From the NCBI GenBank assembly GCA_963762115.1, contig CAVXJH010000003.1, forward strand, positions 64,001 through 128,000: DNA of 64,000 nt, in the 5' to 3' direction. A program made the position numbers and the translations under genes. This stretch comes from Candidatus Babeliales bacterium. Lineage in GTDB: Bacteria; Babelota; Babeliae; Babelales; JANWKD01. The notes beneath the pieces are model-generated. The model did no database searches. It had not been told where the DNA came from and worked only from the letters and a program-made list of their open reading frames with translations. Below, piece after piece: positions 3,342 through 63,379 of this stretch; positions within the stretch are counted from its first letter, which is position 1; each line of letters opens with the position of its first letter.

Positions 3342-4814
3342 ATGTATCAAATGAATCAATTTATGAAATTTAGTGTACTAGTCCCTCTGTTTTTTGCTTC
3401 TAGCGTAGGTGCGCAAGACGCAACAGTAAAAATTAACGCAGAAGTCCCAGCAGTAGGTCAACCTACTCCTGGGCCGGTTACAAAACCAGTTGAAGAAGAG
3501 AAAAAAGTTGATCAGGCAACGGTTACGAAGGTCCAAGAAGACAACAAAGCCGAAGCGAAAAAAAAGGTTGATCAAGGTAATGATGCTGCGCAAAAGGTAG
3601 ATCAAACAAAAGAAGAAGCTAAGAAATCCGAAGAAGCTAAAAAGTCTGAAGAAGCTAAAAAATTAGAAGAAGAAAAAAAGAAATCTGAGGAAGAGAAAAA
3701 ATCTGTAGAACAGAAAAAAATTGCTCAAGAAAAAGCAGAATCTGATAAACAAGCTTTGGCAAAACAAGATACAGAAAAAAAAGTTATTTCAGAGCAGCAA
3801 GAAAAAAAAGTTATTGTTGCAAAACAAAAGATACAAGGTGAAGGCATTGATACTTTAGAATTAGAAGGTGGCAATTGGCTTTTAAAACGACAAGCCCTTG
3901 AAAAGACGGTAGATATTATTGAACAAATAAATGGTTATTTTACTAAAGTTTTAGAAGCAAGAATCGATTTTTTGGTTAAGCGTAATAAAATAGATCGTGA
4001 TTTTGACGCTTTTATTAATAAAATTGGTTTTGAGATGGGTGATTTATCAAGATTGCTCAATAATTTGACCGAAGAACTTGAAACTGAACGAAAAGCTATC
4101 GGAGATTTAACAGAGGAAGAACGATCGGCTTTAACAGAGTTAGATGCAAAAATAAAAGAAATTAAGCAATTGCAAGAAGAGACAATAAAAGCAACAGATC
4201 TAGCAAATTCTCTTGATGATGTCATTATGCAAGTTGAACAAGAAGTTACTATTGCCAATACCTATCAGGCAAATGCTTGGAAAAACTTTCAAGCCATCAA
4301 AAAAGTGCTTAATGATGAAAAAGCTGAAGAATTATATCTTGAAACCCAAGGCCTGCTAAAAAACATACAAGCTGTTGACGCTTATTTAAAAGAAAAATTG
4401 CAAGATTATTTCAATGGTATTATTCGTAATATAAAGCAGGAAATGTCTAAAATTGAAAGTTCAATGCAAGCGTTAGCAGATAAAGGTGTTAATTTTAAAG
4501 AAGAAGTTGAACGGTTCTTAGATGCTGATAAAAAAAGAGTTGAAAAAAACACGGTGAAAAATGTTGAAGAAGATAAAAGTGTTGAAGCATTGAAAAAAAC
4601 AAAAAAAGCATTAGAAAAAAAAGCGACCCAAAAAGCAGGATGGCTTGATTGGTTTATTGGTCTTTGGGATTATCCAATGAGTTTTTTCAGTAGTATTTGG
4701 CAATACAGCATGAGTTTTTTTGGTGAAAAAACTGATACTCTTGTTGCTAAACGAGCAAGCGTGAAGAAAATTGAAGATAAAACTTCAACGCCAAAACCAG
4801 TTGCAGTGAACTAA
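3342..4814 (+). CDS. Secreted coiled-coil protein with EEAKKS-type repeats
   Basis: Signal peptide (...SSVGA|QD), K/E-rich repeat region, long heptad region, amphipathic W/F-rich segment near the C-terminus. Confidence 0.75.
   Translation: MYQMNQFMKFSVLVPLFFASSVGAQDATVKINAEVPAVGQPTPGPVTKPVEEEKKVDQATVTKVQEDNKAEAKKKVDQGNDAAQKVDQTKEEAKKSEEAKKSEEAKKLEEEKKKSEEEKKSVEQKKIAQEKAESDKQALAKQDTEKKVISEQQEKKVIVAKQKIQGEGIDTLELEGGNWLLKRQALEKTVDIIEQINGYFTKVLEARIDFLVKRNKIDRDFDAFINKIGFEMGDLSRLLNNLTEELETERKAIGDLTEEERSALTELDAKIKEIKQLQEETIKATDLANSLDDVIMQVEQEVTIANTYQANAWKNFQAIKKVLNDEKAEELYLETQGLLKNIQAVDAYLKEKLQDYFNGIIRNIKQEMSKIESSMQALADKGVNFKEEVERFLDADKKRVEKNTVKNVEEDKSVEALKKTKKALEKKATQKAGWLDWFIGLWDYPMSFFSSIWQYSMSFFGEKTDTLVAKRASVKKIEDKTSTPKPVAVN
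3612..3704 (+). repeat. Imperfect in-frame 18-21 nt tandem repeats (EEAKKS/EEEKKS)
   Basis: gaagaagctaagaaatcc / gaagaagctaaaaagtct / gaagaagctaaaaaatta / ... Confidence 0.8.
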
Positions 4815-4884: not shown

Positions 4885-4971
4885 GCGGAAGTGGTGAAAT
4901 TGGCAGACACGCAGCTTTGAGGGGGCTGTGGGAGAAATCCTGTAGGGGTTCGAGTCCCCTCTTCCGCACCA
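4885..4971 (+). tRNA. tRNA-Leu(GAG)
   Basis: GCGGAAG/CTTCCGC acceptor stem, anticodon arm CAGCT-TTGAGGG-GGCTG, long variable arm, GGTTCGAGTCC, encoded CCA. Confidence 0.97.
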
Positions 4972-5094
4972 GCTTTCGCCAAGGCTTCAGCTGGCAGGCC
5001 ATTTTTTTTAAATGACTTATGATAAGAAAATGTCTGCGAAAGCTGTCCGCCGTAGCTTGCCAAGCTGGTAAGCGTGGATAAGCGAAGGCTGGAC
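4972..5094 (+). repeat. tRNA-trailing structured element, copy 1
   Basis: Homologous to 6867-6990; starts immediately after CCA; several stems. Confidence 0.85.
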
Positions 5095-5183
5095 TATTTT
5101 GCCAACGCTTCGTATTGTAGGTCTGAATTGAAAATTGAAATAAGAGTAGAATTGATTCAAGCATTGTTAGAAGGAAATATCGT

Positions 5184-6764
5184 ATGAATTCATCTTTGCG
5201 TACGTTTTTGCGTTCAAGTTTTATTATGTGGGTTGCATTATTTGTTGCAGGTTTTTTCTATTTGTTTACCTTTGAAGGATTTGTTCCTCATTTACGTAAA
5301 GATCGCATTAAATTTGGTATAGATCTTGTGGGTGGAACTTATATTACTTTGGGTGTTCAAGTTGATAAAGCTCTTGAGATCGATTTGAATGACAAAATTA
5401 TTTTATTAAACAAAAGTCTTTTAAAAGAAAATTTGGCTATACCTTTGTCACATTCAATTACCGGTAACAATGCTTCGTTAACGTTTGAAAGTTATGAACA
5501 AGCAAAAGCTGCAGAAGAAATTTTAAAAAGAGAACAAGAAATAGTTTCATCAGTTGATGGCACAAAGCTTTCAATGCACTTTAGAGATTCTTATGCAAAT
5601 AAGCTTCGTGATGCAGCTGTTGCAGGAAATATCGAAGTGTTAAGAACACGTTTGGATGGTTTGGGTGTTGGTGAAATTCCTATTGCCGCACAAGGTGAAA
5701 AAAGTATCATTATTGAATTGCCAAATGTTGATGATCCTCAAAAAGCGAAAGCAATGATAGGAAAACCAGCGTTATTAGAAATTAAATTGATTGAGCGTAT
5801 TGGCAGCAGTCCTGAAGAAGTTTTAGATGCTTACGACGGAGAATTACCTGATGGTATGATTATTATTCCTGGTAAATCGCGTAGCTTAGAGGGTGCAAAG
5901 AGATATTATCTAGTGCCAGCATTTACTGATTTAACAGGTCGTTTACTCAAAAATTCCTACGCAGGTTTTGGTGGAACGATGAATTCAGAGCCTGTTGTTC
6001 ATTTTGAATTTAATCCAGAGGGTGGTCAAAAGTTTAATGAACTAACGCGTAAAAACTATAATCGTCAACTTGCGGTGATTATTGATGGTGTTGTTATTTC
6101 TGATCCTCGTGTCAATGAGCCAATTGGTGCACAAGGTATTATTCATGGTAACTTTACTTTAGAAACCGCTTCTGAACTTGCTTCAATGTTGAAATCGGGA
6201 GCTTTTGTGGCGCCGGTTACTTTTGAAGAAGAACGTCAGATTGGTCCATCTTTAGGACAAGAATCAATTCGTCAAGGGTTACTTGCTTGTTTGGTTGGAT
6301 TGCTTTTATTATTTGTCTTTAGCGTGATCATGTATAAGCTTGCCGGTGTTTTTGCTGTCATGGCATTGGTGTTTAACTTGTTGCTCATTTTGATTGTTCT
6401 TGGCGCTTTGCAAGCAACATTAACCTTACCGGGTATTGCTGGTATGGTGTTAACGATTGGTATGGCAATTGATGCTTCGATCTTAATATTTGAAAAAATG
6501 CGCGAAGAATTAGCTACAGGAATGCCACTTGGGAAATCTATAAATTCTAGTTTTTCTGATGCAATGGAAGTAATTTTAGATTCCAACATTACAACATTTA
6601 TTGTTGGTATTGTGTTATATAAATTTGGTGCAGGTCCAATTCAAGGTTTTGCGTTGACATTGATGGTTGGTATTGTTGCAACATTAATTAGTGGATTGTT
6701 TTTTTTACGTTCCATTTTTTCCTTTTATGTGTATACTTTAGGTATGCAAAAGTTAAAAATTTAG
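5184..6764 (+). CDS. secD: Protein translocase subunit SecD
   Basis: GIDLVGG, R.R.D.LGV.E, IGPSLGQESI, TLTLPGIAG.VLTIGMAIDA, GPIQGFA. Confidence 0.97.
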   Translation: MNSSLRTFLRSSFIMWVALFVAGFFYLFTFEGFVPHLRKDRIKFGIDLVGGTYITLGVQVDKALEIDLNDKIILLNKSLLKENLAIPLSHSITGNNASLTFESYEQAKAAEEILKREQEIVSSVDGTKLSMHFRDSYANKLRDAAVAGNIEVLRTRLDGLGVGEIPIAAQGEKSIIIELPNVDDPQKAKAMIGKPALLEIKLIERIGSSPEEVLDAYDGELPDGMIIIPGKSRSLEGAKRYYLVPAFTDLTGRLLKNSYAGFGGTMNSEPVVHFEFNPEGGQKFNELTRKNYNRQLAVIIDGVVISDPRVNEPIGAQGIIHGNFTLETASELASMLKSGAFVAPVTFEEERQIGPSLGQESIRQGLLACLVGLLLLFVFSVIMYKLAGVFAVMALVFNLLLILIVLGALQATLTLPGIAGMVLTIGMAIDASILIFEKMREELATGMPLGKSINSSFSDAMEVILDSNITTFIVGIVLYKFGAGPIQGFALTLMVGIVATLISGLFFLRSIFSFYVYTLGMQKLKI

Positions 6765-6789
6765 GTAAACTTTCTTTAATAGAGATAAA

Positions 6790-6866
6790 GGCGACGTAGC
6801 TCAGCTGGTTAGAGCGGCGGAATCATAATCCGTAGGTCCGGGGTTCGAGTCCCTGCGTCGCCACCA
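6790..6866 (+). tRNA. tRNA-Met(CAT), probably elongator (Ile2 not excluded)
   Basis: GGCGACG/CGTCGCC acceptor stem with G1-C72 pair, anticodon arm GCGGA-ATCATAA-TCCGT, T-loop GTTCGAG, encoded CCA. Confidence 0.95.
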
Positions 6867-6990
6867 ACCTACGCCAAGGCTTCGGCTGGCAGGCCAATTC
6901 TTTAAATGAATTTGTTATAACTAGAAAATTGACGTAGGTTGTCCGCCGTAGTTTGCCAAGCCGGAAGGCATGGATAAACGAAGGCTGGAC
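6867..6990 (+). repeat. tRNA-trailing structured element, copy 2
   Basis: Homologous to 4972-5094 with compensatory substitutions. Confidence 0.85.
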
Positions 6991-7032
6991 CGGCTAGCGC
7001 CATATTTCGCAATCTTTAATAGAAAAAGAAGC

Positions 7033-7596
7033 ATGAAGATTCACGATTTCAATATTCCAACATATCTTACCTTATTCCGTTTAGTGGTTTCTCCTTTATG
7101 TTTACCATTTCTGTTGATGTATGTTTTACCGTACAATAATATATACACAACGTATTGCGTTGCTTTATTTTTTGTTTTCTTAAGTTTTACTGATTTTCTT
7201 GATGGTTATTTAGCACGTAAATATCATCAAGAAACAGTTCTTGGGCGTGCTCTTGATCCTATTGCGGATAAATTTCTTCTTTTTTCAGCGTTAATTACTT
7301 TAGTTGCTACTCATAAAATTTATTTTTATTGGGCGATTATTTTTATTGGACGTGAATTTTTTATTATGGGATTACGCATTGTAGCATTAGAGAATGCTCT
7401 TAATGTGCATGTTTCTTGGTTGGGTAAATTAAAAACAATTGCGCAGATTATATATATAACGATGGTCATTCTTGATTCATCATATAGTTCACTTGCCTTA
7501 AGTGCAGCATTATTTCTATCACTTATTTCTGCTTATTTTTATTATGAATCTTTTATGAAACAATTTGCGCAGAAAAAATTTCATTCTGTTAGTTGA
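7033..7596 (+). CDS. pgsA: CDP-diacylglycerol--glycerol-3-phosphate 3-phosphatidyltransferase
   Basis: TDFLDGYLAR...LG..LDPIADK CDP-alcohol phosphatidyltransferase motif; the track start at 6970 lies inside the repeat element. Confidence 0.93.
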   Translation: MKIHDFNIPTYLTLFRLVVSPLCLPFLLMYVLPYNNIYTTYCVALFFVFLSFTDFLDGYLARKYHQETVLGRALDPIADKFLLFSALITLVATHKIYFYWAIIFIGREFFIMGLRIVALENALNVHVSWLGKLKTIAQIIYITMVILDSSYSSLALSAALFLSLISAYFYYESFMKQFAQKKFHSVS

Positions 7597-7611
7597 AATT
7601 TTTTCTGCGCA
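7566..7611. terminator. Bidirectional intrinsic terminator between convergent genes
   Basis: 18-bp perfect inverted repeat tgcgcagaaaaaatttca/tgaaattttttctgcgca followed by a T-run. Confidence 0.8.
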
Positions 7612-7617
7612 TTTTTT

Positions 7618-8103
7618 TTATTTTGTTTTTAATTCTTGTTCTTTTATGCCAAAACAATCATGTAATTTTTTCCAGATCGTTGTATATTCATTTTTCATTA
7701 TGCGACTTGCAAATAAATCGCATTGATGCTTAAATCCAAAGCTGCCAGCAGTTATACCTGCTAAGCTCGTTGCCACAAGAATAGGATCAGTTGTTGCTGC
7801 CAATAATGCAGTTGAAGCTGGGAGCATCCACCAAGCTGTTTTTCTAAAAGAGCTATTTTCAGTGGTTTTTATTATAGCATCATTTTGTTTTATTTTTGTT
7901 TGTACAGGTTCTAAGGCTTGTTTTTTTTCATTTTTAGTGAATAATTTACATAATGAGACGTGGCTGTACCGTTTTGTTAGATCAAAAAATGTGGCATAAT
8001 TTTGTGATTCAAGAAGTGGCATGAGTCGTTGTTTGAAGCTTTTCATACCAAAAGCTTGGTGCGTGCCGGCTAAAAGTAATAAGAGTATACATAGTTTTTT
8101 CAT
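7618..8103 (-). CDS. Secreted/membrane hypothetical protein, paralog of 8117-8635
   Basis: Signal peptide ...AFG|MK, LPASTALL..T.DP hydrophobic hairpin, C-terminal KEQELKTK shared with its neighbour. Confidence 0.8.
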   Translation of the reverse strand: MKKLCILLLLLAGTHQAFGMKSFKQRLMPLLESQNYATFFDLTKRYSHVSLCKLFTKNEKKQALEPVQTKIKQNDAIIKTTENSSFRKTAWWMLPASTALLAATTDPILVATSLAGITAGSFGFKHQCDLFASRIMKNEYTTIWKKLHDCFGIKEQELKTK

Positions 8104-61843: not shown

Positions 61844-63379
61844 CTAGAAATTTTTTCTTGGGGCGTCGCCAAGTGGTAAGGCACCGGGTTTTGGTCCCGG
61901 CATTCGGAGGTTCGAATCCTTCCGCCCCAGCCATCGTTTATTATCAATCGAATTTATAATGACATCAAACGGTCTTTGTGCGTCGTAGAGCACTTTTTCA
62001 TTTTCAATACGCAAGTTCGATAGTACTAAATTAATTAACTGACGTTTTTCATTCACTTCTGAACTCACAAACCATTCATATGCACGATTGCTAATATCCA
62101 GCACATATTTTGCGGTAGTATAATAATTGTCTTCTGCTTCTCGTAATTGAAGTAAGCGCATGTTAAGATTTTCGCTTTGCTCGCTAAGAGATTGATAGAA
62201 CTTATCATACTGCTCATCAGAAATTTTACCTTTGAGTTTATCAAGGTATAAGTTATCCATCATTTTTGTTGTTATTTTTTGTTCATTGGTGAGCTTGTCA
62301 AATTGTTGGTTATGAAATTTAATTTTATCTTTATGTAATTCATTAAGATTGTCAGTTATTTTTTGTACGGTAGCTTCTGGTAGTTGAAGGCTTTTGAATA
62401 CTTGCCCAAGTTGTTCTGTTATTTCTTCTTCTCGCAACCACTTAGCACCATGCTTTCCTTTATATTGCGTGCAATGATAGTAGGTGAATCCCTTATGTTT
62501 TTCGGGGGTAATTGAACAGCCGCAATGTCCGCAACGCAAAAGACCTCTATACATATAAGGTAGACCAGCATATTTGAAAGGTTTTTTATTGAAGCCATCT
62601 TTTACTTGCTTAACTTCTTCAAAAAGTGTTTTTGAAATAAGAGGCGGATACCGATGTGGATATAATTTTCCCTTTATCAACATTTCACCATGATAAAAAG
62701 AATTGCCAAGGACTTTGGCAAAATAACTCTTGGACCATTGAATGTTAAAGTCAGCTTTCAGTTTTTGGGACAGAGTTTCTATTGAGTATGCCTTTGTTGC
62801 ATAGAGCTCAAAGATTTTTTTAATGATTGCTGAGGTATAATCATCAACTATGATATCTGTGGTGCCATCCTCCTTGGTGATATTCAAATAGCCATACGGT
62901 GCTTTTGAAAGCCATTCCCCTTTGCGTAGTTTTTGCTCTTGAGCGCGTTTTACATTATCGCTGATTGCATCAGAATAATATTTTGCAAGACCAAGGCTGA
63001 TACTAAATTGAAATTTTTCTACGGCAGAAATGCGACTGTTTAGCACTTGACCATCTGATACAAAATGTAGCTCTAGTTTATCCTGAAGTGCTTTTTCATA
63101 AAGTATGGCGACTTTTTTGTCAAAAATATTGCGAGATAAGCGATCGACTTTATCACAGCAGACGGCGATTTTCTCTTTTTGTGCAAGTACAAAATCAATG
63201 ATACCATTAAACTCATCTCGAGGTCCTTCATGCGCACTTTCATCAAAGCTAAATACTTGAAGAATTGGAAAGCCTTTATTTTGGCAATATTTTTCAAGAC
63301 GGGCTATCTGTGCAGGAAGTGAGTTGCCTGCTTCCCTTTGTTCTTCTGTGCTAACACGTGCAATGAGAATTGACTTCAT
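61844..63379 (-). CDS. Large serine recombinase (resolvase + recombinase + Zn-ribbon + coiled coil)
   Basis: ARVST catalytic Ser, DRLSR, PYGY, CGHCG...YYHC; C-terminus overlaps tRNA-Gln in antisense. Confidence 0.95.
   Translation of the reverse strand: MKSILIARVSTEEQREAGNSLPAQIARLEKYCQNKGFPILQVFSFDESAHEGPRDEFNGIIDFVLAQKEKIAVCCDKVDRLSRNIFDKKVAILYEKALQDKLELHFVSDGQVLNSRISAVEKFQFSISLGLAKYYSDAISDNVKRAQEQKLRKGEWLSKAPYGYLNITKEDGTTDIIVDDYTSAIIKKIFELYATKAYSIETLSQKLKADFNIQWSKSYFAKVLGNSFYHGEMLIKGKLYPHRYPPLISKTLFEEVKQVKDGFNKKPFKYAGLPYMYRGLLRCGHCGCSITPEKHKGFTYYHCTQYKGKHGAKWLREEEITEQLGQVFKSLQLPEATVQKITDNLNELHKDKIKFHNQQFDKLTNEQKITTKMMDNLYLDKLKGKISDEQYDKFYQSLSEQSENLNMRLLQLREAEDNYYTTAKYVLDISNRAYEWFVSSEVNEKRQLINLVLSNLRIENEKVLYDAQRPFDVIINSIDNKRWLGRKDSNLRMPGPKPGALPLGDAPRKNF
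61859..61933 (+). tRNA. tRNA-Gln(TTG)
   Basis: TGGGGCG/CGCCCCA acceptor stem, CCGGG-TTTTGGT-CCCGG anticodon arm, GGTTCGAATCC, encoded CCA. Confidence 0.97.

Follow-up and report, generated by a model that had tools for sequence, protein, structure and literature searches.

Why two different transfer RNA (tRNA) genes should each be followed, with no intervening base, by the same structured repeat is the question raised by a stretch of 64,000 nucleotides (nt) from a Candidatus Babeliales bacterium (NCBI GenBank assembly GCA_963762115.1, contig CAVXJH010000003.1, positions 64,001 to 128,000 of the forward strand; hereafter the window). Two repeats of about 125 nt, at positions 4972-5094 and 6867-6990, begin at the base directly after the CCA of tRNA-Leu and tRNA-Met, respectively, and are identical in 101 of 128 alignment columns; the tRNA calls of ARAGORN and Rfam bear out this much of the original prediction, which was made from the letters alone and weighed a cotranscribed non-coding RNA or processing signal against a non-autonomous mobile element targeting tRNAs. 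The repeats contain no gene and are probably non-autonomous versions of a minimal mobile cassette of DNA, which would be spread onto tRNA ends by its own SLX1-like GIY-YIG nuclease and without an integrase. Anatomy, CCA register, linkage to the nuclease gene, patchy presence, homogenisation within genomes and stacking with islands are the observations from which we infer this mechanism. The family of tRNA-end repeats is referred to below as the element or cassette, the 1.53-Mb genome (contigs C3, C5 and C6) as G000, three related genomes as G001, G003 and G004, and the individual loci compared by L-numbers.

Register and anatomy of the element

Searches with BLAST and nhmmer recovered dozens of repeat pieces across the genome, and the element starts at the base after the CCA in 18/41 tRNA calls plus the transfer-messenger RNA (tmRNA) gene. 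A pattern written for its 5' part (the A module, described below) matched 22 times in the genome; 17 of these matches begin at a tRNA or tmRNA 3' end. The many further copies had been missed by the original prediction. The remaining matches comprise three at displaced tRNA ends behind islands, one reverse reading of a palindromic copy and one false match. Hairpins of the B type, which form the 3' part of the element, are also found apart from tRNAs, in mosaics with other repeats. Neither the window nor 20 related loci gave any match to Rfam 15, at gathering or E-value thresholds, except to tRNA and tmRNA. A repeat of about 200 nt common to three G000 loci (C3:527500-528200, C3:501800-502300 and C6:430000-430500) and present in G004 lies amid B-type hairpins. 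Four of the ARAGORN tRNA calls (G000 C5:171339-177582), near a contig end, differ from the other 37 in having no proper CCA end and are perhaps false calls or foreign DNA.

The element reads, in order, CCA, three variable bases (X), T(A/T)C-GC, a loop of 4 to >30 nt, GC-T(A/T)C, X' and TGGC-N2-4-GCCA, followed by a spacer, a distal arm that is an inverted repeat of CA-X-T(A/T)C-GC, and hairpin B (coordinates in Table 1). The first portion folds as hairpin A, in which the tRNA's own CCA is paired with TGG, and which had escaped the original prediction; in copy 1 its internal loop is TTC/TTC on the plus strand and GAA/GAA on the minus strand. The stem that had been proposed to start at the tRNA's last base is recovered as a long stem of 10 base pairs in copy 1 (4970-4979 with 5036-5045), the first pair lying at the final CA of the tRNA, and the 3' hairpin (B) with its apical stem is present in both copies. 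Folding z-scores against shuffled sequences are -3.8 and -3.3 on the plus strand for copies 1 and 2, respectively.

The differences between copies preserve pairing, as had been proposed from the window pair. The three variable bases covary with both of their partners (GCT/AGC/AGC, CGC/GCG/GCG, TAC/GTA/GTA, ACC/GGT/GGT), and in an alignment of 44 sequences pairing reaches 97% in the long stem, which has 54 double-change cells; the corresponding values for hairpins A and B together are 92.8% and 81. None of 500 shuffles reaches the observed paired fraction or covariation score, and controls with slid pairings are 23-48% paired; because the 44 rows were chosen by a pattern that itself requires pairing, so that the covariation counts lean towards structure, these tests of both pairings show consistency more than significance.

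Hairpins A and B are one bulged hairpin in two opposite orientations, A being read on the minus strand and B on the plus strand. The pyrimidine T(A/T)C loops stand on the plus strand in 103/111 A modules, and the purine loops hence on the minus strand; in hairpin B, T-G wobbles are retained on the plus strand (12/44); and across the tRNA trailers of four genomes the 25-nt insert of the window's hairpin B occurs in forward orientation 16 times and, inside A, as its reverse complement 13 times. The mismatches of the long stem, 11 G-T versus 11 A-C, show no strand preference. Such two-strand symmetry is expected of a DNA repeat.

The internal loop of hairpin B, which had been described as an invariant GTA/GAA loop resembling loop E, is G-(A/T)-A on either arm, and GTA/GAA accounts for only 20 of the 66 hairpins parsed, the others being GAA/GAA (13), GAA/GTA (11), GTA/GTA (5) and further types (17); the flanking G-A pairs are presumably sheared. 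Similarly, the C-TTCG-G tetraloop noticed in copy 2 proves to result from the three variable bases; at this place copy 1 has TTCAG. The spacer opens with a T run and an A(A/T/C)(T/G)GA motif in 26/33 Babeliales copies (window 5002-5020 and relatives; shuffled mean 5.8), and a search for an internal promoter in the spacer found only a weak excess of TAG(A/C)A (8/33, shuffle maximum 7). At L094, L096, L097, L108 and L228 the order is permuted, the distal arm and hairpin B being nested in the loop of hairpin A with all three arms kept. Hairpin B also serves as a landing site: an IS110-family element of 1.2 kb with a 313-amino acid (aa) DEDD transposase has five near-identical copies in G000, four of which, including one in the tmRNA copy, interrupt the hairpin B internal loop at one and the same position. 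By analogy with IS110 elements in REP repeats, this position would be a natural bridge-RNA target.

A small nuclease gene behind the element

The original prediction had pointed, on the basis of similar motifs elsewhere, to a link with small GIY-YIG nuclease genes, and such genes do follow the element elsewhere in this genome. Three of the six GIY-YIG matches in the genome are genes of 80-87 codons behind an element, intact at tRNA-Arg(tct) and C5:156073 and broken by a stop at C5:148567, and window copy 1 matches the leader at C5:156222 of an intact nuclease gene (C5:155834-156073, minus strand, encoding 80 aa) at every one of its first 31 nt. The encoded proteins (80-87 aa) have Pfam GIY-YIG as their sole domain; the catalytic Tyr, Tyr, Arg, His and Glu are kept in 104-106 of 106 proteins, and the predicted fold has a pLDDT (predicted local distance difference test score) of 97. 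The nuclease is closest by sequence and fold to SLX1/HIGLE, its closest solved relatives being SLX1, HIGLE and UPF0213.

A set of 110 homologous nuclease loci (80 from GTDB and 30 from the order, including some duplicates) was examined for its surroundings. A tRNA or tmRNA gene lies on the same strand within 600 nt upstream in 85 of the 110, on the opposite strand in none and downstream in one; the linked loci cover 19 RNA types and several phyla, and most of the other 25 still carry CCA and the element. Cultured carriers of the cassette exist among Bradyrhizobium species, where it stands at tRNA-Ala. The element begins after position 76 in 81 of the 87 nuclease loci that could be parsed; at three loci it follows C71-C72-A73 and at one an internal CCA, which favours joining at a CCA at the level of DNA. 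Priming by the mature tRNA was considered as well, and these four loci point elsewhere. The hairpin lies upstream of the nuclease gene in 91/104 loci and downstream in 9/104, and the tRNA 3' end is repeated downstream, within 600 nt of the nuclease gene, in only 1/104. The downstream open reading frames, identified at 73 of 101 cassette loci scanned, are unrelated genes of the host; the housekeeping neighbours remarked upon in the window are indeed secD and a CDP-alcohol phosphatidyltransferase gene, and their proximity is incidental.

Across 151 genomes of the order, A modules and the nuclease occur together in 87, the nuclease alone in 4, the module alone in 26 and neither in 34 (odds ratio 28, for genomes that are incomplete and whose kinship makes them non-independent), and the mean hairpin copy number is 5.9 with the nuclease versus 1.5 without it. 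Nuclease relatives were found at five loci in viral contigs and, in a plasmid search, in no plasmid; carriage by phages or plasmids was thus considered and found unsupported. Two other small GIY-YIG genes of G000, which are Ssn-like and lie at C3:533000 (L001) and C3:558723 (L004), are flanked by inverted SRM-like repeats, of which 62 heads were counted genome-wide; the genome therefore has two nuclease-hairpin systems, their hairpins nested in one another.

For the mobile cassette that is favoured here, the following course may be envisaged. Hairpins A and B would be one strand-specific structure of single-stranded DNA with a purine-purine internal loop, bound by the nuclease, and a nick at, or just past, the CCA of the folded tRNA gene strand would leave a 3' end whose CCA could anneal to the TGG or the distal arm of the element and prime its copying. 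The right end would be joined via short or no homology, and this would account for the precise left end, the ragged right end and the frequent loss of the sequence behind the tRNA. Nuclease-bearing cassettes would mostly keep to one tRNA in a homing-like manner, and gene-less copies would also move between tRNAs. In its most specific form, which is put forward only tentatively, an 80-residue SLX1-like nuclease may recognise any tRNA or tmRNA gene in the form of a folded single strand and nick it at the CCA, with a hairpin doublet of 125 bases serving as the template of its own copying. Such a minimal mobile element, with neither integrase nor transposase, would re-occupy tRNA ends after displacement by islands and disable these by deleting their recombinases.

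Turnover, stacks and competing explanations

Empty tRNA alleles in relatives, one of the checks suggested with the original prediction, are readily found. Inspection by eye of the tRNA-Leu-secD junction in 28 relatives gave 10 filled sites with several variants, 3 doubtful and 15 empty ones; at tRNA-Met-pgsA, G003 is empty, with the pgsA start 5 nt past the CCA, and G001 and G004 hold variants of their own. A 490-aa coiled-coil-like exported protein without a Pfam match is encoded upstream of tRNA-Leu-secD (window 3342-4814), with homologues at the same place in many relatives. Among 36 tRNAs shared by G000, G001, G003 and G004, 17 are patchily filled, 5 are filled in none and 14 in all four, counting one G000 copy (Arg acg) assigned by eye and keeping separate the four odd C5 tRNA calls. 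In 65/76 cases an element finds its best match in a copy at another tRNA of the same genome, and mean match scores are 11.9 within the same genome, 7.4 at the same tRNA and 5.5 for neither, a size-fair excess of paralogues (11.9 versus 7.4) that is modest.

Displaced copies are found in stacks with islands. The stack at tRNA-Glu starts with an island bearing an intact 488-aa serine recombinase, the far end of which, TAGGTAACGCCA, is an att-like copy of the tRNA end. Behind this junction stand an element with an intact nuclease gene and, 20 nt further on, a recombinase cut after residue 56 that is 98% identical to the intact one; the stack ends with the second, related island, the same junction and an element with a broken nuclease gene. 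The outer cassette matches the sequence directly behind tRNA-Glu in G003 (81% over 501 nt). The simplest order of events that we can read from these sequences would be an old cassette, its displacement by island 2, a new cassette at the CCA that removed most of the recombinase, and a further displacement by island 1. At tRNA-Arg(tct) the stack consists of an element, nuclease gene, recombinase residues 5-36, island remnant, junction and older module; recombinases truncated at other points follow the nuclease in L038, L045 and L145, and in each of G001 and G004 cassettes lie displaced behind islands at tRNA-Glu as well as at tRNA-Arg(tct). The CCA head is lacking in 14/26 downstream (tandem) A copies versus 4/103 first copies, a count biased by the need of the pattern for the inner arm. 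Taken together, the stacks and the headless second copies indicate a left end that is exact and a right end that is not, and a newer cassette in front of an island with a truncated recombinase points to repeated arrival at the CCA. The stacks in this genome suggest that the element competes with islands for tRNA ends and can immobilise them.

Two further observations concern the islands. In the window (61859-63379) a large serine recombinase, with 67% identity to the tRNA-Glu one, has its 3' end directly behind tRNA-Gln and marks another integrative island; the A-module pattern found no element or displaced module there. Both tRNA-Glu islands encode a protein of 372-382 aa (L219:13316-14434 and 6747-7895; 91% mutually identical, no Pfam match), present also in the G001 and G004 islands and possibly a replication protein.

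Besides the bias in the headless-copy count, several findings weigh against a mobile cassette. A modules without any nuclease match occur in 26 of the 151 genomes, 14 of the 36 shared tRNAs are filled throughout, and the paralogue excess is small. In a metagenome contig whose flank is 97% identical, tRNA-Leu and the last 10 nt of hairpin B are kept, and after CCA-G 49 other letters replace 112; this allele (X1) adds to the picture of patchy presence but, being a replacement by other letters, offers no clean empty site. The nuclease tree contains a Glu clade (14 rows, support 100/89) and an Arg clade (10 rows, 98/93) spanning families of Babeliales; because of these tRNA-specific clades and the universally filled tRNAs, much of the inheritance appears to be vertical, even as the tree, built from 80 columns with rough support, implies no fewer than 23 switches of RNA type in all. 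Behind their tRNA-Glu islands, G001 and G004 carry cassette heads with 91% identity over 234 nt, which would also fit co-transfer with the islands, and the same stacks could arise by host recombination that uses the tRNA gene as its anchor. Hairpin B and the long stem are also predicted to form good folds in RNA of the same strand as the tRNA. Finally, cleavage by the nuclease and mobility of the cassette are properties that we infer, the evidence for mobility being entirely comparative.

An RNA device is the strongest of the alternatives and nonetheless seems unlikely. The tRNA 3' trailer would double as the 5' leader of the nuclease mRNA, hairpin A sequestering the CCA, the long stem releasing it and hairpin B acting in autoregulation or stabilisation, with gene-less copies left as processing or stability signals. 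The covariation of X with two mutually exclusive partners is switch-like, hairpin B works on the transcribed strand, the acceptor stem is retained in the fold predicted for tRNA and copy 1, and the element always lies on the path from tRNA to nuclease. However, the purine loops of A stand on the untranscribed strand, A and B exchange inserts in inverted orientation and the long stem has no wobble bias; in Alphaproteobacteria the inverted repeat continues through the loop of A by up to 11 extra pairs, like a copied repeat; many tRNAs and genomes do without the element, there is no Rfam family, and stacks and homogenisation are left unexplained. The non-coding RNA or processing signal of the original prediction is thus weakened, because the loop varies, the purine loops of A lie on the non-transcribed strand and copies turn over quickly, and its other option, a non-autonomous tRNA-targeting element, is supported by the GIY-YIG genes and the empty orthologous sites.

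Passive spread appears improbable. In this reading the element would be dragged along by islands, or be carried by host recombination or transformation that is guided by homology to the conserved tRNA gene and closes the right junction illegitimately; the hairpins would be repeats prone to recombination, and the nuclease a passenger or a repair enzyme of the host. It would agree with the ragged right ends, the nuclease clades specific to particular tRNAs, the nearly identical heads found behind islands of two genera and the SLX1-like repair fold. Different tRNAs, however, have only the T arm and CCA in common, and still a single genome-specific variant stands behind about a dozen tRNA genes of G001 in exact register, and hairpin copy number tracks the nuclease. 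That the repeats are ordinary terminators of tRNA transcripts is very improbable: a weak stem with a T run was flagged at 4983-5000 and 6878-6895 and T runs follow module A in Babeliales, but there are 4 terminator-like sites against 2.0 +/- 1.7 expected, the stem is weak, G+C-rich relatives have no T run and the bulk of the conserved structure lies beyond it.

A YGGC...GCCA module behind hairpin B of copy 2 may form its right end; such a module is present at only 7/64 B ends. The features of the two window copies and their neighbours are collected in Table 1.

Table 1. Features of the two repeats, the adjoining genes and the IS110-family copies (window positions unless a contig is given)
Feature	Position	Strand	Basis
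tRNA-Leu(gag), encoded CCA, docking site of copy 1	4885..4971	+	ARAGORN, Rfam
Hairpin A, copy 1; CCA and X paired with X'-TGG (outer stem)	4969..4994	-	alignment, covariation
TGGC-N2-GCCA mini-hairpin, copy 1; A module ends in new CCA	4992..5001	+	pattern, alignment
A+T-rich spacer, copy 1; variable length, T run at start	5002..5035	.	spacer analysis
Distal arm, copy 1; inverted repeat of 4970-4979 (stem 1 of the original prediction)	5036..5045	+	alignment, covariation
Hairpin B, copy 1; plus-strand G(A/T)A internal loop and a branched insert of 25 nt at the apex	5045..5094	+	covariation
secD, host gene outside the element	5184..6764	+	gene annotation
tRNA-Met(cat), encoded CCA, docking site of copy 2	6790..6866	+	ARAGORN, Rfam
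Hairpin A, copy 2	6864..6889	-	alignment
TGGC-N2-GCCA mini-hairpin, copy 2	6887..6896	+	alignment
Distal arm, copy 2	6932..6941	+	alignment
Hairpin B, copy 2	6941..6990	+	covariation
Second YGGC...GCCA module, 3' of hairpin B; possible right end of copy 2	6991..7002	+	alignment
pgsA-like CDP-alcohol phosphatidyltransferase, host gene	7033..7596	+	gene annotation
IS110-family copies	G000 C3:515086, C5:37202, C6:170485, C6:303522, C6:253966		

Comparison with known systems

Genomic islands enter mainly at the 3' ends of tRNA genes, and no agent other than an integrase is known, as far as we are aware, to act there. If the cassette is indeed mobile, a bare GIY-YIG domain with its own hairpins would constitute a second route to at least 19 kinds of tRNA or tmRNA end in several phyla and would assign a function to the stand-alone SLX1-like proteins of bacteria, which are uncharacterised. 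A literature search, outside which most subscription papers fell, found no paper describing the element; the main-text passages of Weinberg et al. 2017 (PMC5737381) make no mention of GIY-YIG, and the passages of the Minerva preprint (10.64898/2026.09.22.753630) contain no such element.

The precedent for a nick by a bare GIY-YIG domain is SsnA (cd10448), which cuts one strand beside its own hairpin and spares RNA according to passages of Chenal et al. 2025 (PMC11893778), whose authors liken Ssn/NTS-SRM to the REP/BIME systems; tRNA is nowhere mentioned in their main text. Both systems have a small single-domain GIY-YIG protein (about 90 aa in Ssn, 80-87 here) and a directional multicopy hairpin repeat of its own. 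The Ssn gene, as far as those passages go, is often flanked by hairpins on both sides, whereas the hairpin is upstream in 91 and downstream in 9 of the 104 loci studied here, has a purine internal loop and is fixed to tRNA ends. With regard to lineage, the nuclease shares 22/80 residues (BLAST E 9.9) with the GIY-YIG protein that SRM-like repeats flank in this genome, which was compared in place of SsnA itself, and is nearest to SLX1.

The REP/REPIN/BIME repeats with RAYT, in the passages of Di Nocera et al. 2013 (PMC3733652), are likewise multicopy extragenic hairpins, forming inverted doublets with a variable spacer, and, as hairpin B is by the IS110-family element, REP repeats are targeted by insertion sequences, as excerpts of PMC1525189 indicate. 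Their partner is an HUH tyrosine transposase, whereas here it is a GIY-YIG nuclease; REP repeats number hundreds, whereas the element has about 20 docking sites at the CCA of tRNA and tmRNA genes; and in place of an unpaired GTAG/CGTC tag at the foot of the stem there is a variable G(A/T)A in both arms of the internal loop.

The tRNA-targeted islands with serine or tyrosine integrases resemble the element in inserting at tRNA 3' ends and keeping the tRNA intact, and the two appear to compete here for the same sites. Unlike them, the element has no integrase and no fixed right end, and a far-end repeat of the tRNA is seen in 1/104 loci; the recombinase matches near cassettes are fragments of neighbouring islands. 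T4 SegB, a free-standing GIY-YIG homing endonuclease in a phage tRNA cluster (passages of PMC2330249), is similar in staying with a tRNA locus and possibly spreading via repair of the cut, and the tRNA-specific nuclease clades would fit such homing; it differs from the 80-aa bare catalytic domain found here, which is chromosomal and has gene-less derivatives at many tRNAs. Stand-alone prokaryotic Slx1-like GIY-YIG proteins, treated by Dunin-Horkawicz et al. 2006 (PMC1564403), share the minimal SLX1-type domain, but the passages of that paper give no hairpin repeat or tRNA-end context. By these analogies, the element would resemble Ssn-NTS and REP-RAYT in its working; it departs from both in the defining features that could be tested, and it is no integrative island.

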